Assembly (NCBI GenBank): GCA_944384925.1
Contig: CALWVF010000039.1
Coordinates: 32,087-96,086, forward strand
DNA length: 64,000 nucleotides
Direction: 5' to 3'
Origin: an uncultured Clostridia bacterium
GTDB lineage: Bacteria > Bacillota > Clostridia > Oscillospirales > Acutalibacteraceae
A program made the position numbers and the translations under genes. Position 1 is the first letter of the stretch. Every line of letters begins with the position of its first letter. The notes under the pieces were generated by a model. That model ran no database searches and had not been told where the DNA came from. It worked only from the letters and a program-made list of their open reading frames with translations. This document shows positions 7,669-54,099 of this stretch, in pieces.

Positions 7669-9126
7669 CTAATTTCTAATATATTCTTTCACAGAAAATG
7701 TAGATTTAAATTCATTATTCCCTGCAAGATTTATATTTGGTATCTTTTGTTTAAAACATGATGCTTCAATCTTTGATTCACTTTCATTATTTGAAAACTT
7801 ATCAACTAACCTATCAGCAATGATAGACTTAATTCCAACTATATCTAAATTATTAACCATATCTTTTATTTCTTTTGAGTTTTCAATTTCATCTTGCGTT
7901 ATATATCCAGACTTAATAGCATAATCACATAATTTAGTTTTTTCTTTTTCAAGTTCAGTTTTCTTTTCAGCTCTTTCCATCTCATCAATTTTATCTTTAA
8001 AAGGTTTAAGTCTTTCTACTTCATCTGAAAGGGCTTTAATCTTGGTAGACATTTCAATAATTGTATTGTTTTTAGCTTTTAATACATTATCCATTTCTGG
8101 AATAGCAACCGTAAGCTTACAGTTTTGGGGTTCTCCCAATATCAAATCATCATTTTCTATTGAATATGTAACCACTATATAATCAGTGTCTGTCGCTTTA
8201 TAATCCCATTTTCTAATCCAAGCTGTGTTTATATTAGGGAATAGTAAAAATACATCTACACACTCTTTATACTCTTCCTCCCAAGACTGTATTATCTTTC
8301 TTCGCATATCATTGTCTGTTAACTCCGATGCAATCACATTTTCAATATCATCAACTGAATTATTAACCCTATTAATAGCATCTTTTCTACTTTTCCCTTT
8401 TGATGGAATCATATTGTTTTCCTCCCTTATGTTATTATCTATATATAAACTTTTAAAAACGTCATTTGTTAAAGCTTCTGCCAGTAGCAATTCATTGTTC
8501 TTAAAAGAATTATTGTAATTAGCACACTCTAAAGACTCGCAATATTCCACTACTCCAGCATTTGGGATAGCTCCTAATACATTAGAGCCTAGTAATGTAT
8601 TACCTATAAATACTATATCCTCTAGTATTTTGCCCTGTGGTACTTTTCTTGATTTTCTTACACTTATCTCCCATGACGAAGAAATTTGATTCTTTCGATA
8701 CAAATCTTCAAAAACATCAAAGTACTCTGGGAACCTACTTGACCAAAGCTTTGCTTTTATTAAAATACATGCTCTTTCTCGGTCATATCCATTTACCTTT
8801 CTTTTTTCAATCCATGAATCTATTACAGACCCTATAGCTGTTGTTCCAAAAGTTGCTTCAATAACACCATTTTTATTAGCTTTATATCGTAATTCATGAC
8901 CTCCATAATCTATTGGGTTGCCATTCTTATCTTTAATTAATTTTGCCAGTATCGGGAAACCTATAATGCTTTTATAACATTTTTCTCCTACCTCTTTAGG
9001 TATTAGTCTATGGTTTAAATCCCACTCATCTAACACTGAAATTAAAAACGTAGCTATTTTATAATCCTCATAACTAGAAATATCAATAGGTTCGCCGCTT
9101 ACATAAATATTTTCATTCATACTCAT
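7669..9126 (-). CDS. Putative prohead scaffold (possibly protease-scaffold fusion)
   Basis: 485 aa. N-terminal globular half plus a C-terminal long charged coiled coil (KIKALSDEVERLKPFKDKIDEMERAEKKTELEKEK...). Sits upstream of the capsid-like gene. Confidence 0.4.
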   Translation of the reverse strand: MSMNENIYVSGEPIDISSYEDYKIATFLISVLDEWDLNHRLIPKEVGEKCYKSIIGFPILAKLIKDKNGNPIDYGGHELRYKANKNGVIEATFGTTAIGSVIDSWIEKRKVNGYDRERACILIKAKLWSSRFPEYFDVFEDLYRKNQISSSWEISVRKSRKVPQGKILEDIVFIGNTLLGSNVLGAIPNAGVVEYCESLECANYNNSFKNNELLLAEALTNDVFKSLYIDNNIREENNMIPSKGKSRKDAINRVNNSVDDIENVIASELTDNDMRRKIIQSWEEEYKECVDVFLLFPNINTAWIRKWDYKATDTDYIVVTYSIENDDLILGEPQNCKLTVAIPEMDNVLKAKNNTIIEMSTKIKALSDEVERLKPFKDKIDEMERAEKKTELEKEKTKLCDYAIKSGYITQDEIENSKEIKDMVNNLDIVGIKSIIADRLVDKFSNNESESKIEASCFKQKIPNINLAGNNEFKSTFSVKEYIRN

Positions 9127-11466: not shown

Positions 11467-13080
11467 TTAAAACAATTTATTCCTTTCAGAATCATAATCT
11501 TGTTTATCAGATTTATCCCCCTTAGGTCTTCCGGATTCCTTTTTTCTATTTGATTGGGTATAAAAGCTTTCATGTGGTGTAAATACATTGTTCCACCCAT
11601 TTTTATCCTCAAACTCTCTTTGTTTTAGCTCACTTTCAACATTTGCTATTCCCATAATTTCATATGCCTTCTTAATACTGCAATTAAGTTTTGTATACAT
11701 AAACTCCGATAAACTTTTTCTCATTTCAAAGTTTAATACCTCACTGTCAAGTATTCTTATTGTAGGAGACAGTTCTGGATTTAAACCCTTATCTTCCATG
11801 ATAACTTTATAAAATTTATTTATAACTCCCTCGAACTGTTCACCTATTGCATTAATCATTTTCATAAGTGCTTCGATAGCGATATTACATACATTAATAC
11901 TTGAATTATATGAATCCAAAAAAGAAACGCCCAAAGCTGTGAACACCTTTGAGCGATAAAAATTCAGTGTTTTTTCATCTGTTGTCTCAACAGATGGTTC
12001 AACATATTTTACAAAGTCAACCCAATGCTGAGAAGTATATAAAACTGTATCCTGCCTAAAGGCATTAGCTAATTCTTTATGCGCATGTGTAGCTTCTGCA
12101 AAAGCTTTTCTATTGCCTTCACTTCCTCCTAATTCTTTTCTTAGTCCTTGATGAATAATCTTTTTGGATTTTGCTTTAATTGTATTCTCGTCTGCCTTTT
12201 CTATAGTCTCTAACATTAAGGCTGGTTTTAGTGCCTTGAATACTGGACTAAGACCATAAAGTTCATCTAAGTTGTTTACTCTAATTAACCCCACTCTTTT
12301 TGGGTTTAAGGCAACCCATTTTTCTTTATTATTGTATGCATCAACGATTTCTGATGGATAATTGTTTTTTATAATTTCAGACATATCATTAAAAAATAGA
12401 TTTTTACCGTTCTTCTTTTTCCTAGATGATGGTTTAAGTTTTCTTTTTAATTCATCTATATTAAATGCTATTATAGGCTCTCCATTATACATATATTCTG
12501 TTACTTCACATATACCTAGAGGATACTTGTCAATAACATAATTGCCATTGTCATCGTTACGTAAATACAATATGTACGTACCTTCCAAGTAGCTCATGGG
12601 GATACCGTTTCTAAGTAATCTATCTAAGTTTACTTTATTATTAAAATCGTTTATTATATTTTGAATATCAATTGTATTATCTTCAGATGTATTTTGAGGA
12701 ATATTGTTAGGGGCATCTATTGTGTAGTCAGTGCTAACATAATTTTGAATTGATTCATACACTTTACCGATGATGTCATCCTTATTTACATACTGCTTAA
12801 CAAGTGCATTTATTTGTTTCACTTTATTTAAATCATTCTGTGGGTCATTAGCAAGGTTATTAACAAAATCTATAGTAGGGTGTTGTACAGAAGCCGCTTG
12901 ATTATCTAAAAAACTACTATATAACCCTTTTCTATATATGTCCTCATAGTCTTTAATTGCACTTGATAGTATCCTCTTTTCTATTTTTTCCATCTTATCA
13001 TTGTCTATAACGTCTTCTGAAACAGATGTAGCTAATAATACCTCATCTGAATCTGACATTATAACTTTAAAATCTTCCAA
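11467..13080 (-). CDS. Portal protein (putative)
   Basis: 537 aa, TTG start, immediately downstream of the large terminase. Acidic/basic C-terminal tail. Assigned by size and position. Confidence 0.6.
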   Translation of the reverse strand: MEDFKVIMSDSDEVLLATSVSEDVIDNDKMEKIEKRILSSAIKDYEDIYRKGLYSSFLDNQAASVQHPTIDFVNNLANDPQNDLNKVKQINALVKQYVNKDDIIGKVYESIQNYVSTDYTIDAPNNIPQNTSEDNTIDIQNIINDFNNKVNLDRLLRNGIPMSYLEGTYILYLRNDDNGNYVIDKYPLGICEVTEYMYNGEPIIAFNIDELKRKLKPSSRKKKNGKNLFFNDMSEIIKNNYPSEIVDAYNNKEKWVALNPKRVGLIRVNNLDELYGLSPVFKALKPALMLETIEKADENTIKAKSKKIIHQGLRKELGGSEGNRKAFAEATHAHKELANAFRQDTVLYTSQHWVDFVKYVEPSVETTDEKTLNFYRSKVFTALGVSFLDSYNSSINVCNIAIEALMKMINAIGEQFEGVINKFYKVIMEDKGLNPELSPTIRILDSEVLNFEMRKSLSEFMYTKLNCSIKKAYEIMGIANVESELKQREFEDKNGWNNVFTPHESFYTQSNRKKESGRPKGDKSDKQDYDSERNKLF

Positions 13081-13105: not shown

Positions 13106-14935
13106 TTAAAACTCAATATTAGAAACACATGATTCAGCTTGACAAATATCTTGTTTTTCTATATTTCTTTCAACTGTATCCTGCTTCTTTAATAAATATA
13201 GACCCCATGCACACAAGGCTGTAACGTATGCTCTGTCATCGTTGCAGTTCTTTTTCTTTTCGGGTGATACATCGTATCGGTAACTATTATTAGTACCATT
13301 GTATCTATAAATATTTATAAGCTCCTCGTGCGCAAGTTCTATGTTTTTATAAACTGCTATCTCATCTTCTGATAATTGATATGTGTATGGTTCTTGCTCA
13401 CCCTTGTTATCCTTAAATAAAGTAATATACTCATTATTGTCGTAACCCCCAACAAACTTTATAATACCTAAATTTAAGTATTCAATAAGGGCATCAAACA
13501 TTTGTGTTTTATATTTAGATGGAGATATTAAATTTAAGCAGTTATAAGCATTTGGAAATATCTCTATATATTCTTTTGAAACATCTGTATCAATTAGTCC
13601 CCTATGTTTTTTACCGTTAAAGTCTATCCAATCCTCCATAAAGTAATCAGCTAATATTCCTCCTCCGCCTCCTGAACCAGCATCAACAAATAAATCAATA
13701 GCTTCATAATCAGGATTTTTGCCATTGTATTTTAATATAAACTCTTTTAATAACTGTACTTGTTTAGGAATTTGTAGAGGTTTTTTGTGTTTGGAGTCAT
13801 AAAAAATTCCACAGTTAACAAATGTTCCACACCAACCAACACTTTGCTCATATTTACACTCCATTACTGCATAGGCAGAATTGTCAACCTTTTGTGCTGG
13901 GTCATAGGCTAGAATATATCTTTTCCTTTTAGATTTTTCTTTGTTATCATTATAAAAAACAGGTAAGCTTACAACTATATTTCTCATAAGAGTACTACGT
14001 TTTATTGGTTGATTATCTCCTCCGTTTATTGAAAATTTATTGTAATATTCCCTCATAGCTTTTTCTTTATTTTCCCTCATGGCATTATCAATAGTGGACT
14101 GTGATAACAGTGGCTTTATAGATACACCATTGTACATAGGATGCAACCCCATTTCAGCGTTCATATCACAAACAAAATACTTAGGGTCTCCCATAATCAT
14201 CTTTTTTGACCAGTCTTTATATGCTTTAAAAAAGTATTGGTCAACATCTGAAGCTGAAGAACACATTAATGCTTGATTTGGCATTTGTTTTGGTTCAAGT
14301 TCTGCATTTATGTGGTCACTTACTTTAAAGTCAGACGTAACACTTAAAAATGGAAGTGAATTTTGTATCAATCTCTCATCTAAAAATCCACACTCATCAT
14401 ATACATTTAAATTACTACGTTTTCCTCTTATAGTATCAAAATCGCTGGAAAGACTTGTAATCTCACTGCCATTAAACAAAGAATAATGAAACCCACTAGG
14501 TGCATGAACAATACCATCTTTGTTTGAAACTGATGTTATTAATTCACTGGAAAATAAGTCAGTTAAATCAGGGAAACTTTCAATCTGCCGCTTCATTATT
14601 TTTTCTATCTTCATAAACGACTCTTGGCTCTGTGAGCTTATACCACTTAGGATATAAGAAATATGATTGTTAAACAGAAGTTGTTTTGCCATAACAAAAG
14701 GAGCAACGAGAGTTGTTTTCCCGATGCCCCTTGAACACGCCCAAAGTATAAATTGTTTGTCCCAAGACGATAAAAATATATATTTTTGATTGTCAAGAAA
14801 CTTAAAGCCTATAAATTGCTCAACAAATTTTGTTGGGCTACTTCGACCCCACTGGACTATTTCCGACCACTTTTCATAAAGCTCTAATTTTTTTGAAGTG
14901 ATTTCTCTATTAGTTTTTTGTACATAAAACTCTAT
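13106..14935 (-). CDS. terL: Terminase large subunit (extended 81 codons upstream of the track ORF; apparent ATA start)
   Basis: The in-frame upstream extension encodes ...FILWACSRGIGKTTLVAPFV (Walker A). Walker B-like NVYDECGFLDE. Nuclease-domain acidic motifs ILAYDPA, VDAGSGGGG, CNDDRAYV. Confidence 0.85.
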   Translation of the reverse strand: MEFYVQKTNREITSKKLELYEKWSEIVQWGRSSPTKFVEQFIGFKFLDNQKYIFLSSWDKQFILWACSRGIGKTTLVAPFVMAKQLLFNNHISYILSGISSQSQESFMKIEKIMKRQIESFPDLTDLFSSELITSVSNKDGIVHAPSGFHYSLFNGSEITSLSSDFDTIRGKRSNLNVYDECGFLDERLIQNSLPFLSVTSDFKVSDHINAELEPKQMPNQALMCSSASDVDQYFFKAYKDWSKKMIMGDPKYFVCDMNAEMGLHPMYNGVSIKPLLSQSTIDNAMRENKEKAMREYYNKFSINGGDNQPIKRSTLMRNIVVSLPVFYNDNKEKSKRKRYILAYDPAQKVDNSAYAVMECKYEQSVGWCGTFVNCGIFYDSKHKKPLQIPKQVQLLKEFILKYNGKNPDYEAIDLFVDAGSGGGGGILADYFMEDWIDFNGKKHRGLIDTDVSKEYIEIFPNAYNCLNLISPSKYKTQMFDALIEYLNLGIIKFVGGYDNNEYITLFKDNKGEQEPYTYQLSEDEIAVYKNIELAHEELINIYRYNGTNNSYRYDVSPEKKKNCNDDRAYVTALCAWGLYLLKKQDTVERNIEKQDICQAESCVSNIEF

Positions 14936-14946
14936 AAATCATCACC

Positions 14947-16179
14947 TCAAACTCTTTGATATTTACTCTTATTTAAAATCTCATACTTAGTTTCTAATTG
15001 CTCTATATAACTTTGCATTTGAGAAATTATAGATTTATTGTCATTATTTCTTACTTTCTCTTGTCTGTACTGCTCTTCAAGTTTTGACACTTTTCCTTCA
15101 AGTTCTACTCGTATTTCTCTTAATTCTTTTATCATATCCCATAATTCGGATTCCTGAAGATTAATTTGCTCAATAATTGATTTATGACTTATATCTGCAA
15201 CCTGTTTCATAGATTCAGACGTTTGTATATCATATAAATTAACTTTAGCATCTCTTAGTCCAACCTCTCCAAGCTCTTTTACAATTCCACTTAAAGTCCC
15301 TGCTCCTTTGCTCTTTTGGGTACTGTAGCTAACGCTAATCCCATTATCTTTTGCAAGCCTTAAACAACTTGTGTACAGTTTTTCTTTAGAAGCTACCAAT
15401 GTACTTATTTTATTTGCATTATCTTCAATGTTATCAGGAGAAGCCATCATATTTGTAAAAGTTACGTTTAGTCTTTCAACTTGTCCTAAAGTCTTTACTA
15501 TTTCTATTACAATAAGCCTTTTAAATGGGTCTTCAAGCGTTGAATCATCTAAAAAGCGTATTAACGAGTTAAACAAGAATTTTCGCTCTTTAATTTCATA
15601 AGAAATAAATGGGTCATATCCTAGCATTTTTATACAATCGTTTCGATTAGTAATATCCTCTTCGTTTTCTACATTAGGATTTTCAACTACATTGCCATTT
15701 ATTTTTACTGCTCCCTCACGATACTTTTGCTCCAATAAATCTATATCTAAAAAGTTTGCACTGTCTCCAAAACTCTCCCCATAACCGCTATTAGCCTTAA
15801 AACTATTATATATATTTACGTAAGCAGTAGCGATTGAAACATTCATGCTAAGGCTTTTCTTTAGCGAACCCTCAAATATATTATTCGCATAATATAAGTC
15901 TATTTTTCTGCACAAGTAATACATAGCTAAATTAGTGTCGCCATATTGCCTACACATCTCATTAAACATTTCATTTATACAGTTCTTGCAATACGGAAGT
16001 TTACTCATGTTGTAGTTATAAATAGGATTATGTGATAAGTAAAATGAGTTCGGTTTTCCATTTAGTCCGCATCTAACACATAAAGGTGTACACACTGTTT
16101 GAGGTGTTTTTGTGGGGTCGTTTAAGTCTTTCTTTTTTATGGGCTTTGTTTTGGACGTTCCTTTCGGTCTACCAGCCAT
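14947..16179 (-). CDS. Putative terminase small subunit / DNA-binding packaging protein
   Basis: 410 aa. Basic N-terminus MAGRPKGTSKTKPIKKK, Cys pairs (CVRCG...CKNCI), long C-terminal coiled coil. Directly upstream of terL with its stop overlapping the terL SD. Confidence 0.35.
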   Translation of the reverse strand: MAGRPKGTSKTKPIKKKDLNDPTKTPQTVCTPLCVRCGLNGKPNSFYLSHNPIYNYNMSKLPYCKNCINEMFNEMCRQYGDTNLAMYYLCRKIDLYYANNIFEGSLKKSLSMNVSIATAYVNIYNSFKANSGYGESFGDSANFLDIDLLEQKYREGAVKINGNVVENPNVENEEDITNRNDCIKMLGYDPFISYEIKERKFLFNSLIRFLDDSTLEDPFKRLIVIEIVKTLGQVERLNVTFTNMMASPDNIEDNANKISTLVASKEKLYTSCLRLAKDNGISVSYSTQKSKGAGTLSGIVKELGEVGLRDAKVNLYDIQTSESMKQVADISHKSIIEQINLQESELWDMIKELREIRVELEGKVSKLEEQYRQEKVRNNDNKSIISQMQSYIEQLETKYEILNKSKYQRV

Positions 16180-16193
16180 ATATGTACACCTTC

Positions 16194-16520
16194 TTATTTG
16201 ATATTTTTATCAAACTGTATTTCTTTTAAGGCATTAGTTATATATTTACCTGCTTTAATTACAACCTTATACTTATCAGGCACTTTTATCTTAACTGAAT
16301 TATCCCTAGGGTCTCCCCTTAAATGAGATGGAACAAATTTTGTTAAGATGGTTAAAAAACCTCTATCTTGTATAATGTCTCTATTCTTGACTACTTCTAA
16401 CATAAGATTTTGATATGCATTTAAACAGTATCTACACTTCTCTTGGCTTAAACCTGTTTCTTTAGACATATATTTAATTATGTCATTTTTTAAATATACC
16501 TTATTTATATTTACCACCAC
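16194..16520 (-). CDS. HU/IHF-family (TF1-like) DNA-binding protein
   Basis: 108 aa. Pattern ETGLSQEK...LMLEVV...GF.T......P...RGDPRDN..VKIKVP.KYKVVIKAGK matches the HU fold, including the beta-arm with the R.P motif. Confidence 0.6.
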   Translation of the reverse strand: MVVNINKVYLKNDIIKYMSKETGLSQEKCRYCLNAYQNLMLEVVKNRDIIQDRGFLTILTKFVPSHLRGDPRDNSVKIKVPDKYKVVIKAGKYITNALKEIQFDKNIK

Positions 16521-16642
16521 ACTTTTGTTCTTTATATAGCTTACTTAAATAATTTATTATCATATAGAGTATTTTAAGCTTATTATTGGCTTAGAAAAGA
16601 TTTTTTCTAGGACAATCTATAAATTTCTAATGGTGGTTATTC

Positions 16643-17416
16643 TTATTTAACTTGTTCTCTTTTTTTATTATATTTAATATATTTTTTCTTTACTTTTTCT
16701 TTTGAACAGTCATTACAGTAAATTTGTCTATTTGACAGCTTCCATATCAACTCATTGCAGGTTGTACACCTTATCACCCTTTTATTTTTGCAAACATATT
16801 TCTCCCACCATAGTCCACATGTATTAAATTCATCTACACTTTTAAAGTCAAATTTTCGTGGTGACCCAGTAAAGCTATTATTTAAAAACGATAAGTAAAT
16901 TGACCCTTTATCATTAATAAATATTAATTCATTCGATAGTAACTCATGCAATATATTCACTGTATATGAATTGCTTGCACAGCTGTTCATCTTTTTTAAT
17001 CTGTTAATCCCTATATTAATCCAAAACTTAGATTGATGACTTAGTTCATTAATTTTACTACAGCAAAGTAAGCAAAATAATAATCGCTTTGATTTCGGTG
17101 AGATAGCTAAATTTTTAATATAGTCTAATTCTCCACTTAAAAATTCAATACTCTTTATTTCAAATAGCTTTGCATCCTTTTTATAGGCATTATTAATAGC
17201 CTTTTTTAGTGTTAAATAATAATCTGTTAAATTATAATCACTTATGTTTCTGTTACAAAATTCAATTAAATCATCTTTACAATCTTTTTTACTCATGTTT
17301 TTAAGAAAACGGTTATACTTTGCAAGTATAAATAGCTCCAAGCCCCACTTTTTAGACTGGAACCCATTTGCTATAATCTCCAGCACATACATTTTTTCAT
17401 CTAGGATATTAAGCAT
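16643..17416 (-). CDS. Hypothetical protein with C-terminal zinc ribbon (possible transcription factor)
   Basis: 257 aa. C-terminal RCTTCNELIW...IYCNDCSKE (CxxC-x15-CxxC). Immediately downstream of the RNAP-like gene. Confidence 0.35.
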   Translation of the reverse strand: MLNILDEKMYVLEIIANGFQSKKWGLELFILAKYNRFLKNMSKKDCKDDLIEFCNRNISDYNLTDYYLTLKKAINNAYKKDAKLFEIKSIEFLSGELDYIKNLAISPKSKRLLFCLLCCSKINELSHQSKFWINIGINRLKKMNSCASNSYTVNILHELLSNELIFINDKGSIYLSFLNNSFTGSPRKFDFKSVDEFNTCGLWWEKYVCKNKRVIRCTTCNELIWKLSNRQIYCNDCSKEKVKKKYIKYNKKREQVK

Positions 17417-17436: not shown

Positions 17437-20205
17437 TTAAACTTTTAAATTTTCAATCTTATATTTTTTACCTAGATAATTAATCCTACCATTTTCATCT
17501 TCTATTGGGTATTCTATTGTTCCTCCAGTGTTATAAATTATATTCTCAAATATTTCTTTGCCAAACATTGCAAATAGTATGTCCTTGTTATAATTAACCT
17601 TGTCCTTGTAAAACAAATCAACTAAACAATTTACAATCTTATATGTATTAGAATCCAAGCAAAATAACTTGTTCCTATAAAGTGTATAGATATTAACCAC
17701 ATCATTATTTAAACCGTCATCGTATTTATTCTTTTCATGTGATTTAATAAGTCCTTTTAAAACCCCTCTAAGCTCATCAACTATTGAAGATACCCCCATA
17801 TAAAAAGCTTTATCAAAAGTATTCCCCTCTCTTTTATATAAATCAATAAAATTTATATTTCCTTCTGCCTTTACATTAAATTTAATATCTTTAGATACAT
17901 TTTCCATGTAATGTGACAATACATTCATGGCACTATTATTATCTATAACAGGGCAATGTTTATAATATCTTTTGATAAATTCATCCTGCTCTCTACTTCT
18001 TTTCTCTAAGCACAACACCTCCTTCAAGGTTATTCCCCATCTAGCCTTTGTACTTAACTCATAGTCCTGCCTCCACTTCTTATAATCCTTTCTTACATGA
18101 TTATAAAGATAAATAAAAAAGTATGGATATTTATTGCACAATAAAGAATTGTTTAACGCTTTTCTGCATTTAATCTCTTCACTATCCGTATTTTCAATCT
18201 CATTATACCTATTCCAAATATTAGGGATACCCTTTACAGGTTTGCCTATTTTAGCTTTATCAATTTGAGCAGACTGCATTTTACAAGCCATTCTCATTCT
18301 ATTAAGCAATATGTTATATTCTTTTGTATCACTCGAAAAATTATCCATTAATGTTCTAATTATAGTTGCACAGTTTGTAATTCTTCCTATAATACTCCCA
18401 AATGTAAATTTATCAGCTAATTGTAAATCTCTTTCAGAAAGCACCACCTTATTCGGTTTAGGAGCCTGATATAAAACTGGTAAGTCATCTGAATATGTAC
18501 TTTGAATAATAATTGGTTCACTTGTAGTTGCTAAAATATCGTAGTCAAAGTCACTACCCGCAAACCTTAACGTGTACTCATCATATATATTTGTAATAAT
18601 TCCTGTATAACAATATTTAAACCACTCGTCAAGACTATTATCCTTTTGTAAGTCTACAACCAAATGCTCACTTAAATAAGTAAGCGGTGAACGCATACAA
18701 TCTACTTTTGATACGTTTTTGTTATTCCAATAGCTAGAGTAAAAATGTCCTGATTTTATTAAGCCCTTTACCTCCAATCCACATGCATGTTCCATAAAGG
18801 CAAAGCTATCAGGTACAATGACTTGAAAATTTCCATCAACTAAAATTTTACCCATACAAGCATTGTTAATTTTTGTTTTTATATTTTTGTTTATTTTAGA
18901 CTTTATATATTTGTCATTTAAAAGCTCTTTATTGGCAATTAAACATTTAAGCCAATAGTTTGATGAACCCTTCATAAAATTTTTTAATTTGTCTTCCGTT
19001 AAGCTTGTACCCATTAAAAATAATATTGTATACCAATAATTATCATAAGAGACCCCTTTTAGATATTCTACTGTCTTTAAGCAAAGACTTTTTACTTTAT
19101 TACTGTCTAAATTAAGGGTCTGGATAAATTGATAATTTAATTTAAGGATATCCTTATCCTGCTTTGGTGTAAAAAGAGATACTCCCCAATCAAGCTTATT
19201 CTTTTTACAATTAGCCTTATACTCTTCCAAACTGCCATATGTATTCCAAAGTTTAAATTGACTTTCTGTAAGGATTATATCTATGTCCCTTAAATCAGCC
19301 TTTTTAGTAGTTCCATTCTCATCCTTATAAATCGTTTCAATCTCATAATTATCATTGTTGTAAATCTTACAAAACCTTTGTATGTCAAACACGCTTACCA
19401 TGCCTTTAATCCATGGCGCTCTTATGCACCACTGTGCTGGAATATAATCAAGTTCTAATTCATCCGCCCATTCCTTTGCCTTATGAGGAGTTATAAGTCC
19501 GTTGCCATCAAATAGGTTAAATTCAACAGGGACAGTTTTTCTTTCAATAATATCATCTTCGTCCTTACTGTTTGTCTCCGTAACCCACCACACATCAACG
19601 TCCTTTGTTCTATAGCAGTCTGGAATCACGCAAAAGCGAGGTGCTGTGACCACTTTTGTAGCCGAGCTTGATATACCTAAATATGCATTATATTTAGACG
19701 GTGTAATCGGTATGTCTCTATTCCTTCCATTGTCTAGTCTATTTAACAATTGTTCAGCTATACGTTCTTCAACAAACACAACTCTTGAAGTTCTACCCTG
19801 TGCAGCTGAACACGATACCCTGATATATTTTTTATTATTAACGTATAATCCATTTTGAAAGATATAATCGTAATCTTTATTTGATTCCATAGTAATTACA
19901 GCGTATTCTTCTATAAGCATTGTATCATAGATGTACCTCTGCAAATACTTTACTTTATTCAAATTTTCCTTATTTTTAGCTTGTCTCTTAATTTTGTCTC
20001 TCTGATTATAGTATACTTCTATAGATTGCTTATCATGCTTTTGACCTTTAATGTCCCTTATTAGTCTTAGCATTTGATTATCTGAAAGTGAAATAATCTT
20101 TTTATATTTTAATGCCTCCTCAAAGGAAATGTTTATTTTAAAATTATATTCTTTTAGCCATGAAGAATTAAATTTGTAAACATAAAACTGCCTATTTACT
20201 TGCAT
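17437..20205 (-). CDS. YonO/QDE-1-like single-subunit two-barrel RNA polymerase (putative phage late-gene RNAP)
   Basis: 922 aa. CMRSPLTYLSEH followed 45 aa later by FAGSDFDYDILAT. This parallels the RNPCLHPGD...GSDLDGD catalytic-loop arrangement of cellular RdRP/YonO-type polymerases. The gene heads the late operon. Confidence 0.6.
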   Translation of the reverse strand: MQVNRQFYVYKFNSSWLKEYNFKINISFEEALKYKKIISLSDNQMLRLIRDIKGQKHDKQSIEVYYNQRDKIKRQAKNKENLNKVKYLQRYIYDTMLIEEYAVITMESNKDYDYIFQNGLYVNNKKYIRVSCSAAQGRTSRVVFVEERIAEQLLNRLDNGRNRDIPITPSKYNAYLGISSSATKVVTAPRFCVIPDCYRTKDVDVWWVTETNSKDEDDIIERKTVPVEFNLFDGNGLITPHKAKEWADELELDYIPAQWCIRAPWIKGMVSVFDIQRFCKIYNNDNYEIETIYKDENGTTKKADLRDIDIILTESQFKLWNTYGSLEEYKANCKKNKLDWGVSLFTPKQDKDILKLNYQFIQTLNLDSNKVKSLCLKTVEYLKGVSYDNYWYTILFLMGTSLTEDKLKNFMKGSSNYWLKCLIANKELLNDKYIKSKINKNIKTKINNACMGKILVDGNFQVIVPDSFAFMEHACGLEVKGLIKSGHFYSSYWNNKNVSKVDCMRSPLTYLSEHLVVDLQKDNSLDEWFKYCYTGIITNIYDEYTLRFAGSDFDYDILATTSEPIIIQSTYSDDLPVLYQAPKPNKVVLSERDLQLADKFTFGSIIGRITNCATIIRTLMDNFSSDTKEYNILLNRMRMACKMQSAQIDKAKIGKPVKGIPNIWNRYNEIENTDSEEIKCRKALNNSLLCNKYPYFFIYLYNHVRKDYKKWRQDYELSTKARWGITLKEVLCLEKRSREQDEFIKRYYKHCPVIDNNSAMNVLSHYMENVSKDIKFNVKAEGNINFIDLYKREGNTFDKAFYMGVSSIVDELRGVLKGLIKSHEKNKYDDGLNNDVVNIYTLYRNKLFCLDSNTYKIVNCLVDLFYKDKVNYNKDILFAMFGKEIFENIIYNTGGTIEYPIEDENGRINYLGKKYKIENLKV

Positions 20206-20250
20206 AAAGTACAGCCCCCATAGTTTATATCAGTCATTTGATATCATTTA

Positions 20251-20280
20251 GATTATTACACTGTGTTATATATATCGAAA
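20251..20280 (-). promoter_or_regulatory. Conserved promoter-like motif upstream of the RNAP gene
   Basis: Minus strand reads TTTCGATATATATAACACAGTGTAATAATC, about 45 nt upstream of start 20205. Near-identical motifs occur at 37085-37113 and 38439-38465. Confidence 0.5.
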
Positions 20281-20336
20281 TGTGCAAAAAATAAATTCCA
20301 AAGCTATATATGTAATTATACATAATACAGTTACTA

Positions 20337-21323
20337 TTATTTTGCAGATTCTTGACAGTTACTAACTTTATTATTTTTAGATATATCTAGCAAGTAATTT
20401 GACAACTCTTTTTGTTCAGCTAAATAATTTGGAGGTAATGTAAAGTTATTTGTTTCTTTTAAAAGATTCTTTTCCGCTTGTAAATCAAAAAAACTTATCA
20501 ATCTTTTATTTAATTCAATGCGGTTTTCTTGATACATATTCACTGAATACTTATCACTGTTCACCCGGTTATCCCCATTTACTTTTATACAATAGGAGCG
20601 GTAAAAGTAGTCCCAATCATACTTACTATTAATTAACATATTTACCTTTTTATAATATTGCCTAGATTTAAATACAGAAAACACATCCGCTAAATTCTGA
20701 AAGTCCATATCTTCTAATACTTCACTTTCAATATCAATTATTTTATTTACATCACAAATGTCCGCTTTATATGTTCGATTTGCTTTGATTATCATATAAC
20801 ACTTCTCAAATGATATAATTCCTTTCTTTTGCATGGTTAATAATGCATTTTCAATAACCTTAATAAACTTAGATTTAGTACGACTCAAAAAGTTATTAAT
20901 GCTATATTTATCATAACCCATGCTTTTTAATTCTCTTAAAAGCTTTACATCCATATACCTTTGATTAGCCATTCCGCAAAGTATTATAGTTTGATTTAAG
21001 GTAAGATTTAATTCAAGCTCTTCATTGGTTTCTACATTGTCCTTACAAATAATAGATTCGATATGGTCTAAAAAAATATCCGTTATAAGCTTTTGATAAA
21101 GACTTCTTCCATTATTTATTCTGCCGTCATATTTATTAAGCGGAGGATTATTTATTTTAGTTATTTTTATTCTTTGCCCATTTTTAACATATGCAAAATA
21201 TCTTAGCCATTCTTTAATCTGCGCTTTTTTAGAGTTCGATGTTAATATGGGTTGGTTTAAGTAATTGCATAACTCTTTATAATTCTTAAAAACTTGTCCA
21301 ATCTTCAAATTATTTAAGTTCAT
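20337..21323 (-). CDS. Hypothetical protein
   Basis: 328-aa ORF, divergent from the 21514 operon. No motif recognised. Confidence 0.4.
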   Translation of the reverse strand: MNLNNLKIGQVFKNYKELCNYLNQPILTSNSKKAQIKEWLRYFAYVKNGQRIKITKINNPPLNKYDGRINNGRSLYQKLITDIFLDHIESIICKDNVETNEELELNLTLNQTIILCGMANQRYMDVKLLRELKSMGYDKYSINNFLSRTKSKFIKVIENALLTMQKKGIISFEKCYMIIKANRTYKADICDVNKIIDIESEVLEDMDFQNLADVFSVFKSRQYYKKVNMLINSKYDWDYFYRSYCIKVNGDNRVNSDKYSVNMYQENRIELNKRLISFFDLQAEKNLLKETNNFTLPPNYLAEQKELSNYLLDISKNNKVSNCQESAK

Positions 21324-30967: not shown

Positions 30968-31888
30968 TCATGTGATTTTGCCAATAAATCCATTAACTTT
31001 TCTTTTTAAATTATTTTTTGTTGGTCTGGTATATTTAAATGTTGTTTCGACTGATTTATGCCCTGCAAAATAAGCTATTTCATGAAGTTTTCCATCCTGC
31101 TCCAGTCCGTTTGTACAAAACCAATGCCTTAACTCATGTGGATGAATTTTTTTATTATACCTTTTAAATATCCTATTAATGCCTGATGTAGAAAGTTTAT
31201 CTGATTTTCTACTAATGAATACATATGGTGAATTTACATGCGCTCCATAATTTAATTTATTCCGTTCATTCTTTAGATACTTTTGCAATATCTTAGTACA
31301 CTCCATATCTAAATATACTGTTCTTTGTTTTTCTCCTTTCCCTGAATGTATCACAATTTCTTTTTTACTTAAATTCACATCTTCAAGTTCAATACATGCC
31401 ATTTCTTGTACTCTTAATCCTGTACATGCTAATAAATAAGCCATAGCATAATTTCTTAGATTATTGTCTTTTTTTAAATTACTTAAAAACTCCATTACTT
31501 CCCACTTTTCTACATCTGTAGGATTCAGGTATTCAGTTTGTACTTTTATCATATCTCTTTTTATTATTACTATTTCAACCATTTTTCCTATGTCAATCAA
31601 ATACTCATTATAACGCTTTAATACTGATAGTTTATGATTGATTGTCTTAGCATTTTGACGTAAACTCTCTTTAAGATACCTTTTATATAATAAAATATCA
31701 TCCCTTTTTAAATCTCTAATCATTCCAACATTGTTATACTGCCATTTATAATATAGGTTAAGTTCTATTCCATAGCTTTTAATAGTGTTTTCAGAGTAGG
31801 AATTACTTTTTAAATATTCTGTAAAGCCTCTAATACACCTCATTATGTCTTGATTAACACATGTTTCTATTTTATTATTTGTATCCAA
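30968..31888 (-). CDS. Tyrosine recombinase (XerC/D-phage integrase family)
   Basis: 306 aa. ACTGLRVQE (Arg I), HELRHWF (HxxR), AGHKSVETTFKYT (His/Tyr). Confidence 0.8.
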   Translation of the reverse strand: MDTNNKIETCVNQDIMRCIRGFTEYLKSNSYSENTIKSYGIELNLYYKWQYNNVGMIRDLKRDDILLYKRYLKESLRQNAKTINHKLSVLKRYNEYLIDIGKMVEIVIIKRDMIKVQTEYLNPTDVEKWEVMEFLSNLKKDNNLRNYAMAYLLACTGLRVQEMACIELEDVNLSKKEIVIHSGKGEKQRTVYLDMECTKILQKYLKNERNKLNYGAHVNSPYVFISRKSDKLSTSGINRIFKRYNKKIHPHELRHWFCTNGLEQDGKLHEIAYFAGHKSVETTFKYTRPTKNNLKRKVNGFIGKIT

Positions 31889-37166: not shown

Positions 37167-38237
37167 GTGCAAAAAAAACAGGAAAAAATATTGTGTAAAA
37201 ACGGTCGCTTACCACTAAGTAAAAGGGAGTTTAATGTTGATAAAGAGCTAAAGGAGGAATTTTTATCAGGGAAAACTCAAAGCACTTTAAAACAAATTCG
37301 TGTAACTCTTTTTAAAGTTGATGAAGTTGAATTTAAAAAAAACAAAAAAATATATGACTTTGATTTAACGGAAATTGAAAATATGATTTTAGCAAAATTT
37401 CCCTATAGGTCTTTAAATTCTCTCAACGCTAAAATAAGTCATATAAAGTCCTATATTGATTACTGTGTTCAAAAAGGTTATGCAAAAACAAATAACTGTA
37501 GATTAATAAAAGGACTTGGTAAATATACTGTTGACATCAAAGCAAAAGATTTATACGTTACATATTCTCAATTAAAAGAAGTAACTGAAAAACTTATAAA
37601 TACATCTGATAAATTAATCCTAGAGCTTGCATTTTTAGGATTAACAAAACCAGAACTTGAAAATTTAGAGGAATCTAACATTGATTATGAACATAACACT
37701 ATAAGAGTATCAGACAATGGGGAAAGGGAAAGAACGATAGACCATATTCCAGATGAAGTTATGAAATTGTTAAATAAAAATTGTTTAACTGACTACTATA
37801 TTATAAACAATGGTAAACCTGATAAGCGTAAAATGAACCTTTATTATAATCCTCAAAAGTCACATAAACCCACATATAGAGAACTTAAAAGTGGAAATAC
37901 ACACGTATTTAAACTTACCGTAACTGCAACTAATATTGAACCTCAATCTGGATTTTTCCAAAATCGAATGGCTAACATACATAAATGGACAGGCTGTAAT
38001 TTCACTATTAACACTTTACGGATGTCGGGTATAGCCCACTATACCCTAAATTATAAAAAAGTAAATAACTTAGAAAAACTCAATAACCAGGATTACGCTA
38101 ATATTTACCAACGGTTTTATTATAATGACCCCTTTATTAAAACTTGTAATGGAAAAAGGAAATGTAAAAATGCTGTTTGGGATGTCGTGTTTAGTTTGAG
38201 AAAAACAGTAAAGCTATTATATGGTCAAGATATTTAG
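37167..38237 (+). CDS. Integrase-like protein with degenerate catalytic residues (possibly non-catalytic DNA-binding protein)
   Basis: 356 aa. N-terminal SAM-like/core-binding features (IKSYIDYCVQKGY). LAFLGLTKPELENL where Arg I is expected. NTLRMSG in place of HxLR. Confidence 0.4.
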   Translation: MQKKQEKILCKNGRLPLSKREFNVDKELKEEFLSGKTQSTLKQIRVTLFKVDEVEFKKNKKIYDFDLTEIENMILAKFPYRSLNSLNAKISHIKSYIDYCVQKGYAKTNNCRLIKGLGKYTVDIKAKDLYVTYSQLKEVTEKLINTSDKLILELAFLGLTKPELENLEESNIDYEHNTIRVSDNGERERTIDHIPDEVMKLLNKNCLTDYYIINNGKPDKRKMNLYYNPQKSHKPTYRELKSGNTHVFKLTVTATNIEPQSGFFQNRMANIHKWTGCNFTINTLRMSGIAHYTLNYKKVNNLEKLNNQDYANIYQRFYYNDPFIKTCNGKRKCKNAVWDVVFSLRKTVKLLYGQDI

Positions 38238-53552: not shown

Positions 53553-53628
53553 TGGTGAGCCATCGGGGATTCGAACCCCGGACACCTTGATTAAAAGTCA
53601 AGTGCTCTGCCAACTGAGCTAATGGCTC
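53553..53628 (-). tRNA. tRNA-Lys (anticodon UUU)
   Basis: GAGCCATTAGCTCAGTTGGCAGAGCACTTGACTTTTAATCAAG...GGTTCGAATCC...GGCTCACCA. Full cloverleaf, CCA encoded. Confidence 0.9.
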
Positions 53629-53712
53629 ATATTTACTTTTAAAAATAAACTTTAATACAAATTAATTAAGAATAATAAATATATGTACATTCTCAAAATG
53701 CACCTTTTTAAG

Positions 53713-53788
53713 TGGCTGGGATGGCTGGATTCGAACCAGCGCAATGACGGAGTCAAAGTCCGTTGCCTTACCGCTTGGCTACATCCCA
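53713..53788 (-). tRNA. tRNA-Gln (anticodon UUG)
   Basis: TGGGATGTAGCCAAGCGGTAAGGCAACGGACTTTGACTCCGT...GGTTCGAATCC...CCCAGCCA. Confidence 0.9.
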
Positions 53789-53826
53789 ACATATAATCAA
53801 ATTAAAATCCAATTACCTTTAGAACA

Positions 53827-53904
<78 letters not shown>

Positions 53905-53907
53905 ATA

Positions 53908-53984
53908 TGGCGCGCCAGAAGGGACTCGAACCCCTGGCCTACTGCTTAGAAGGCAGTTGCTCTATCCAGCTGAGCTACTGGCGC
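53908..53984 (-). tRNA. tRNA-Arg (anticodon UCU)
   Basis: GCGCCAGTAGCTCAGCTGGATAGAGCAACTGCCTTCTAAGCAGT...GGTTCGAGTCC...GGCGCGCCA. Confidence 0.9.
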
Positions 53985-54025
53985 AAATACAACTAACCAG
54001 CTTGTACTTTTACCTGATTAATTAA

Positions 54026-54099
54026 TGGAGCGGGTGATGGGAATCGAACCCACGCGACCAGCTTGGAAGGCTGGAGTTCTACCATTGAACTACACCCGC
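54026..54099 (-). tRNA. tRNA-Gly (anticodon UCC)
   Basis: GCGGGTGTAGTTCAATGGTAGAACTCCAGCCTTCCAAGCTGG...GGTTCGATTCC...CCCGCTCCA. Confidence 0.9.

Follow-up and report, generated by a model that had tools for sequence, protein, structure and literature searches.

A probable YonO-type RNA polymerase and its zinc-ribbon partner protein upstream of the late genes of an SPbeta-like prophage

The 64,000-nucleotide stretch of DNA analyzed here (the window), from an uncultured Clostridia bacterium, holds part of an SPbeta-like prophage. On its minus strand, to which the coordinates below refer unless stated otherwise, an open reading frame (ORF) at 17437-20205 encodes a protein of 922 amino acids (aa) that we assign to the YonO family of single-chain two-barrel RNA polymerases (RNAPs), in a subfamily with a D-x-D-[YFM]-D catalytic loop. 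A first-pass annotation had singled out this ORF by two motifs lying 45 residues apart, and the translation bears this out: CMRSPLTYLSEH begins at residue 503 and FAGSDFDYDILAT at residue 548, an offset of 45 from start to start with 33 residues in between. After a gap of 20 nt comes a gene for a 257-aa protein (16643-17416). Its predicted model has a helical N-terminal part, a winged-helix-like middle, a four-cysteine (C4) zinc ribbon and a basic C-terminal helix, and synteny ties it to the polymerase gene. The HU-like gene follows at 16194-16520 and encodes a 108-aa DNA-binding protein, the counterpart of SPbeta YonN (Pfam Bac_DNA_binding, E 5.8e-10). Thus, the order given at first pass, a zinc-ribbon protein (CTTC...CNDC) and then an HU-like protein, is the one we find.

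YonO of phage SPbeta is a processive DNA-dependent RNA polymerase, and 37 SPbeta late genes are silent without it (Forrest et al. 2017, PMC5467207), in agreement with the role in late transcription given for it at first pass. Transcription that depends on YonO begins downstream of both yonO and yonN and ahead of yonK and an unannotated noncoding RNA (ncRNA), at genome position 2225998 of strain 168 (PMC5467207). The gene order in SPbeta is yonP, yonO, yonN (HU), a 1.7-kb spacer, and then yonK with the late genes. Because the YonO-dependent start is downstream of yonO and yonN, the SPbeta polymerase gene lies outside the unit that it transcribes. The same study left open whether YonO requires a factor to find its promoter (PMC5467207).

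Several searches place the 922-aa protein in this family. The Pfam model RdRP (PF05183) matches residues 105-677 with 41.7 bits against a cut-off of 23.8 (E 8.2e-11), a match recovered again in a profile search of the contig, and PHROG 8308, a family of unknown function, matches with E 1e-150. A tblastn search against phage records matched 39 of them. The best is Bacillus phage BUCT082, with 45% identity over the full length; SPbeta yonO is 27% identical over residues 92-652 (E 1e-24, with yonO and its relatives at E 1e-24 to 1e-28), and Clostridium phages c-st and D-1873 and Enterocloster phages are matched as well. Full-length homologues fall into hundreds of sequence clusters. Members of the subfamily are already in the databases under automatic names, several of them as 'RNA dependent RNA polymerase'. 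Knowledge of YonO-like proteins in Firmicute phages and prophages goes back to 2003-2010 (PMC2919709), with characterization in 2017, and the polymerase itself is expected rather than surprising.

The predicted fold points the same way. An AlphaFold2 model built with 65 homologues has a mean pLDDT of 89.7 and a pTM of 0.86. Its best Foldseek matches in the Protein Data Bank (PDB) are maize and Arabidopsis RDR2 and QDE-1 (E 3.8e-17 to 2.5e-12; TM about 0.45-0.52 across >900 columns), and the two-barrel fold is read from these matches of the whole predicted model. The next match, a weak one, is the phage P32 gp64 RNA polymerase (E 2.5e-4), while the β′ chains of multisubunit RNAPs are non-significant (E ≥ 0.018) and the crAss-like and jumbo-phage enzymes are absent from the significant matches. 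An unrelated fold such as a primase-polymerase was not seen, and no other fold competes in this search. The sequence itself matched no PDB chain, and a family-profile search gave only a weak match to RDR2 (E 0.3). That match nevertheless falls at the expected motif, with the DG.G and KG elements aligned to 'sDGIGKIS...QIRYGGYKG'. YonO apparently has no deposited structure. Because three independent lines agree (PF05183, direct similarity to yonO, and the RDR2/QDE-1 fold), the YonO/QDE-1/RDR two-barrel class proposed at first pass is supported.

The active-site residues are also in place. The putative catalytic metal-binding loop, D552-F-D554-Y-D556 (18538-18552), aligns with DNDGD of YonO, and R505-S-P507 (18685-18693), the R-x-P motif of the second, β′-like barrel, aligns with RSP of YonO. 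The motifs of the first, β-like barrel are D233-G-x-G236 and R262-x4-K267-G268 (19402-19509). In an alignment of 65 homologues D233-G-x-G236, R262, K267-G268, R505, P507, D552, D554 and D556 are invariant, and D233, R262, K267, R505, P507, D552, D554 and D556 are also kept in a three-way alignment with the BUCT082 protein and YonO. Since R505, P507 and the three aspartates are invariant in all 65, the motif residues are not chance matches. All two-barrel RNAPs have eight residues in common: three aspartates, a further aspartate, an arginine, a proline and two basic residues (PMC2919709). We infer that D552/D554/D556, D233, R505, P507, R262 and K267 form this set, a residue-by-residue equivalence with Rpb1 and Rpb2 in which, following PMC2919709, R505 and P507 would correspond to R446 and P448 of Rpb1. 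One of the two basic positions is an arginine, as in RNA-dependent RNA polymerases (RdRPs).

The metal-binding D-x-D-x-D triad is thus present as D552, D554 and D556, and the glycine of a D-x-D-G-D loop is missing, with Tyr555 at the fourth position. The first-pass annotation correctly read D-F-D-Y-D as a variant loop, but the variant is shared by a whole subfamily and is not special to this gene. In the 120 homologues nearest to it (44-64% identical), the recognized loops read D-[FYWK]-D-[YFML]-D, and none has a glycine at the fourth position; the pattern gave no match in 17 of the 120. Because the recognized loops never have glycine there, the tyrosine is a hallmark of a large subfamily and no private change. 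It is also no bar to membership in the class, as the fourth loop position lies outside the eight invariant residues of PMC2919709. Both states exist in the wider phage family: PMBT24 has DFDGD, D-1873 has DVDGD and YonO has DNDGD.

In several relatives the polymerase gene is broken by inserts of 0.27-1.3 kb, one of which encodes a 230-aa helix-turn-helix protein. The break falls inside the catalytic D-x-D-x-D loop (query residues ~549-556) in five loci of our comparison set (L073, L074, L076, L092, which is phage c-st, and L094, which is MT835481) and inside a conserved QIDKAK motif (residues 649/650) in two others (L065, L072). The inserts resemble self-splicing introns or homing elements of another kind; a search of the interrupted genes with Rfam matched no intron family.

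We turn now to the 257-aa protein. In 78 of 80 related IMG/VR loci, whose polymerases are 37-52% identical to that of the window, the gene directly after that of the polymerase encodes a homologue, and one of the two loci lacking an adjacent homologue is a truncated contig. The two ORFs overlap or abut in 72 of 79 loci (-29 to +14 nt, often a 4-nt overlap), which suggests translational coupling. The protein itself diverges fast, with 22-31% identity to most relatives, and the only invariant columns among 48 homologues are the four zinc-ribbon cysteines C217, C220, C234 and C237. They are encoded at 16706-16768, and a basic tail (KKKYIKYNKKR) follows them. No Pfam family covers the protein, and a profile run against 1.84 billion cluster representatives found 2174 relatives, 1397 of them at E ≤ 1e-10; among the matches listed nearly all are 240-330 aa long.

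The zinc ribbon links this protein to YonO. We built a hidden Markov model (HMM) from the last 61 alignment positions of the partner proteins, a set with no SPbeta sequence in it, and searched 3211 ORFs. It matched the C-terminus of YonO (residues 794-837, E 4.6e-8), the sole long protein found. In a pairwise BLAST comparison the partner and YonO are 46% identical over 37 residues, including a ...SN..KYC..C...KY.KYNKKR pattern. By contrast, all 81 polymerases of the 922-aa type that we compared lack a paired CxxC in their last 60 residues. The HMM also shows the module fused to the polymerase C-terminus in Clostridium phage D-1873, and it sits on a separate protein of ~240-280 aa in c-st, PMBT24 and gut phage MT835481. 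The c-st protein, CST177, is annotated in its record as 'YonO-homolog (C-ter only)'. A third arrangement is seen in P0246, a 1173-aa protein with a DWDYD-type loop that could be an end-to-end fusion: its residues 1-914 share 40% identity with the window polymerase, and its residues 920-1168 share 29% with the window partner. Ribbon or partner is found fused in three independent forms, YonO, D-1873 and P0246. We also considered whether glycine or an aromatic residue in the catalytic loop tracks a fused or separate ribbon, and this is ruled out by PMBT24, which has DFDGD and a separate partner.

The AlphaFold model of the partner has a pLDDT of 92.1. It comprises a helical N-terminus, a helix-helix-helix-strand-strand unit at about residues 107-175, the zinc ribbon and a long basic C-terminal helix. 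Matches to PDB folds are weak (best E 9e-3) and consistently to winged-helix DNA-binding proteins: MarR, CRP/FNR/PrfA, MAGE/Nse3, a plasmid initiator and the MotA activation domain. Strong matches in BFVD were to members of the partner family only. We conclude that the 257-aa protein is a dedicated partner of the polymerase; the near-universal adjacency and two kinds of natural fusion strongly support the first-pass suggestion that the two work together. A role as a DNA-binding initiation or specificity factor is plausible, and the partner is the best candidate for an initiation factor of YonO-type polymerases. Our literature search, whose coverage was incomplete so that its silence is absence of evidence only, found no account of the partner protein, of a split or fused zinc ribbon, or of a YonO promoter motif.

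The packed minus-strand block has only two true gaps, at 20206-20336 and 16521-16642. The second, between the partner and HU genes, holds conserved elements that we identified by comparison with seven contigs of the same clade, and it may be a late promoter or regulatory site. Just after the partner stop codon is a box, AACCACCATTAGAA, of the form ACCACC(A/T)TTAGAA (16625-16638). An AT-rich inverted repeat, CCTAGAAAA/TTTTCTAAG, follows at 16590-16611, and ~40-50 nt further on is a TATATGATAA-type TATGA motif that reads CTCTATATGATAATAAAT in the window (16552-16569) and TTAATGAGAGATATAT in the relatives. The 13-mer ACCACCNTTAGAA has one copy in the window (0.14 expected with one mismatch allowed). 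Among 91 loci only L083, L084, L086, L089 and L091, with the 13-mer always in the corresponding position, and SPbeta have it; the SPbeta copy overlaps the stop codon of yonO (8195-8207 of our SPbeta locus, L001).

More distant viral loci have a different layout. A GC-containing hairpin of the AACCCTTG...CAAGGGTT type overlaps or follows the partner stop codon and is succeeded by a T-rich tract and then by the motif TTATG[AG][AT]A[AG]G. We scored this motif with matrices from which close relatives had been left out, on both strands of loci of ~14.7 kb. The top-scoring site of the whole locus fell within 160 nt past the partner gene in 22 of 63 loci, and a site in that interval ranked among the top ten in 46; position alone would give ~0.5%, a figure that yields no clean probability as the loci are related. 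In SPbeta, TCATTTATGA(A/G)GG has exactly two copies in 13.6 kb, at L001 8958 and 9115. The published primers that mapped P_YonO lie at L001 8988-9011 and 9204-9229, which puts one copy inside the amplicon and the other 18 nt before it; a search of species-representative genomes did not find the primer sequence. From these sequence patterns, the TATGA-type motif is a reasonable candidate for a YonO-type late promoter. The family-wide matrix misses the expected site in the window and its close clade; because this clade has its own motif variant, the proposal is weaker for the window than for the family. As an intrinsic terminator or structured RNA, the spacer is unconvincing (z -0.58).

The other gap, the 131-nt spacer at 20206-20336 upstream of the polymerase gene, contains a possible host-type promoter, TGTAATAAT (20252-20260), which we offer only as a suggestion from reading the sequence. 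A scan of 9-22 kb for consensus sigma-70 promoters and terminators found no more sites than in shuffled sequence, and we do not use it as evidence.

Beyond this spacer lies a conserved gene for a 328-aa protein of unassigned function (20337-21323; PHROG 36702), 131 nt upstream of the polymerase gene. The protein shares 35-41% identity with ~335-aa proteins encoded upstream of the polymerase in L085, L086, L088, L090 and L091; a 515-aa protein upstream of the BUCT082 polymerase proved unrelated to it on comparison. The polymerase is thus not the first minus-strand gene, as had been proposed, nor does the block measure ~20 kb: it spans about 45 kb of the 121,840-bp contig (C39) and includes a tape-measure-sized ORF of 2102 aa. 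The first-pass description of the polymerase as heading the late operon should be corrected to a position just upstream of the late block, given that in SPbeta the YonO-dependent start lies past both yonO and yonN.

Downstream of the partner, the gene order matches that of SPbeta and BUCT082: polymerase, (partner), HU, YonK/YonJ/YonG, terminase, portal, YonD and YonB. An HU gene follows yonO in SPbeta and the polymerase in BUCT082 as well. When the HU proteins of the window, SPbeta and BUCT082 were used as queries against 80 loci, most had an HU gene on the same strand within 5 kb downstream, directly adjacent in 25; the linkage is real but looser than that of the partner. The first clearly late-module gene encodes a YonG-like protein (14947-16179) with 410-aa counterparts that carry Pfam YonG_N in L083, L085, L086 and L088, where terminase, portal, YonD_N and YonB genes then follow. 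The large terminase (weak PHROG match) is annotated at 13106-14692 and extends to 13106-14946 with its in-frame upstream portion, and the portal gene (11467-13080) is followed by those for virion proteins. Counterparts in close relatives carry Pfam YonG_N, YonD_N, YonB, YomX_C and YonJ_N, domains named after SPbeta late proteins. As in SPbeta, then, the polymerase lies upstream of HU and of a YonG/terminase/portal/YonD/YonB block on the same strand. The plus strand at 21.5-53 kb encodes helicases, an exonuclease and a large DNA polymerase.

We made several further observations in this region. The terminase frame is open for ~81 codons upstream of its ATG (14693-14946), and the Walker A motif GIGKTT lies inside the extension. 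The extension contains no ATG, GTG or TTG, and an ATA is found 7 nt past a GAGGTGA Shine-Dalgarno sequence. Because the arrangement is conserved in a ~90%-identical contig (L083), it is no sequencing error of the assembly. Five tRNA genes (Lys, Gln, His, Arg, Gly; 53553-54099) lie at the apparent right end of the prophage, next to a gene for a Lon-like protease and with what look like host genes beyond; the cluster may mark the attachment site or be phage-borne. The bacterial genome is low in GC and comprises 1.46 Mb in 40 contigs rated 99.98% complete, yet the late block of this prophage alone takes up ~45 kb. In relatives, tyrosine-recombinase-like proteins of ~300 aa with Pfam MrpR_C_cat, the type of the SPbeta master repressor, are encoded a few genes upstream of the polymerase (L086 6980-7873, L090 983-1882, L091 922-1821). 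The integrase-like genes of the window are elsewhere, at 30968-31888 and, on the plus strand, 37167-38237, and might include a counterpart of this repressor. Finally, a RAGATH-18 RNA motif (64 bits; L092 9456-9516) lies just upstream of the HU-like gene of c-st, downstream of the polymerase and partner genes and an insertion sequence (IS) element.

Given these results, we consider the 922-aa protein likely to be the catalytic subunit of a YonO-type DNA-dependent RNAP of an SPbeta-like prophage, most likely paired with the 257-aa protein. In the mechanism that we propose, the unit of 328-aa, polymerase and partner genes would be expressed earlier than the late genes. The polymerase and partner would then assemble into a two-protein enzyme. 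One barrel would contribute D233 and R262/K267 to the active site, and the other R505-x-P507 and the Mg-binding D552-x-D554-x-D556 loop, while the partner would supply DNA binding or initiation specificity. By analogy with SPbeta, this enzyme would transcribe the HU, YonG-like, terminase, portal and tape-measure genes and the rest of the ~45-kb structural and lysis block. Late transcription might start at, or be controlled from, the spacer at 16521-16642 with its ACCACCATTAGAA box, inverted repeat and TATGA-type motif. In SPbeta, the system would have been reduced to a zinc ribbon fused into the polymerase chain. We extend this only tentatively to YonO-type polymerases in general, as a proposal that may well prove wrong: that they are two-component enzymes whose winged-helix and zinc-ribbon partner acts as the initiation or promoter-specificity factor at the ACCACCNTTAGAA box, the inverted repeat and TTATGAnAG.

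Other readings dispute the template, the chemistry or the partnership. Because the closest solved structures are the eukaryotic RdRPs RDR2 and QDE-1, the Pfam family is named RdRP and several homologues carry the label 'RNA dependent RNA polymerase', the protein could be taken for an enzyme that makes antisense or double-stranded RNA and does not transcribe phage DNA. This seems to us quite improbable: YonO, the only characterized bacterial or phage member, is processive, DNA-dependent and transcribes late genes (PMC5467207), the window gene occupies the place of yonO ahead of a homologous structural block, and even QDE-1 also takes DNA templates (PDB 7y7r, 7y7t). We give next to no weight to the idea that the glycine-to-tyrosine change in the loop inactivates catalysis and leaves a nonenzymatic relic or structural protein. 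Glycine is indeed usual there in cellular RNAPs, in QDE-1 (DYDGD) and in YonO. However, an aromatic or hydrophobic residue at this position is the rule in the 120 closest homologues, full-length proteins are conserved across hundreds of clusters, and the mobile inserts of relatives target this very loop, as is typical of essential conserved sites. With the three aspartates and every other catalytic residue invariant in 65 homologues, inactivation is very unlikely.

The partnership is the point on which more can be said against us. YonO was assayed for elongation with no added factor, zinc ribbons are common, and the fold matches of the 257-aa protein include replication-initiator-like and repressor-like winged helices. 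The polymerase might therefore be self-sufficient, and its neighbor an unrelated regulator or a packaging or replication protein that shares the operon and a common zinc-ribbon fold. We think this unlikely in view of the specific likeness of the ribbons (SNxxKYCxxC with a basic tail, matched to YonO by the HMM), the linkage and coupling of the genes in 78 of 80 loci over a span of 37-64% polymerase identity, and the fusions in YonO, D-1873 and P0246. A number of findings nonetheless weigh against the two-component polymerase that we favor. Purified YonO elongates without added factors (PMC5467207). It is just 27% identical to the window polymerase, and the preference for DNA over RNA as template would carry over from YonO only. 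P0246 may reflect a lost stop codon or an artefact of gene calling or sequencing, and the winged-helix assignment comes from fold matches that reach no better than E 9e-3 in the PDB. The promoter proposal has its own difficulties: the TATGA pattern was defined post hoc, the position of the SPbeta start relative to the two motif copies could not be fixed exactly, the window copy scores a poor 2.4 bits with the family matrix, and the RNA fold of the spacer is not significant against shuffles (z -0.58). Moreover, the mapped SPbeta start follows yonN and not yonO directly, and the window has no equivalent of the 1.7-kb spacer.

Among minimal single-chain relatives of cellular RNAPs, YonO is the only example that has been studied, and how it recognizes a promoter is a question stated in PMC5467207. 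The locus described here is part of a sister subfamily that is much larger and has hundreds of clusters in Bacillota prophages and in gut and soil viromes. Its split zinc ribbon, compared with the fused one, and its downstream DNA module offer a handle on initiation by two-barrel polymerases, as well as a better annotation for proteins now labeled 'RNA dependent RNA polymerase' or 'hypothetical'. If true, the two-component reading would answer the question of 2017, how YonO finds its promoter, with the partner in the role of sigma, TFIIB or TFE.

The locus can be compared with several known systems. The phage enzymes gp64 of P23-45 and P32, the crAss-like virion RNAP and the multisubunit enzymes of AR9 and phiKZ likewise are two-barrel polymerases that transcribe phage genes without the host polymerase, but they come from other lineages, to which no sequence similarity could be detected. 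QDE-1 (2J7N) and RDR2 (7RQS, 7W82) share the fold over nearly the whole chain and the DG.G, R-x4-KG and DxDxD motifs. Unlike the window protein, they have neither a zinc-ribbon partner nor a phage context; they act in RNA silencing on RNA or single-stranded DNA templates and are 12-14% identical to it. SPbeta YonO is of the same Pfam family, with the two-barrel active-site residues and the zinc-ribbon and basic-tail module. It too is encoded upstream of an HU gene and of YonG, terminase, portal, YonD and YonB, and in both phages the 13-mer ACCACCNTTAGAA ends the gene unit. It differs in its length (839 against 922 aa), its loop (DNDGD against DFDYD) and its 27% identity over residues 92-652. 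Its ribbon is in-chain, whereas the window ribbon is on a 257-aa protein with an additional helical and winged-helix-like part of ~200 aa, and SPbeta has a 1.7-kb noncoding spacer with an ncRNA before the late genes where the window has none. The best match among phage records is BUCT082, whose 'hypothetical protein' UAW07825 is 45% identical over its full length and has the DFDYD loop, and which shares the arrangement of polymerase, partner (34% identical, E 9e-30) and HU. UAW07825 and the ~920-aa RdRP-like proteins of Bacillaceae prophages are known from sequence alone, as is the window polymerase. Relative to the BUCT082 type, the window polymerase belongs to a clade of metagenomic relatives, 59-64% identical to it, with its own version of the downstream cis-element.

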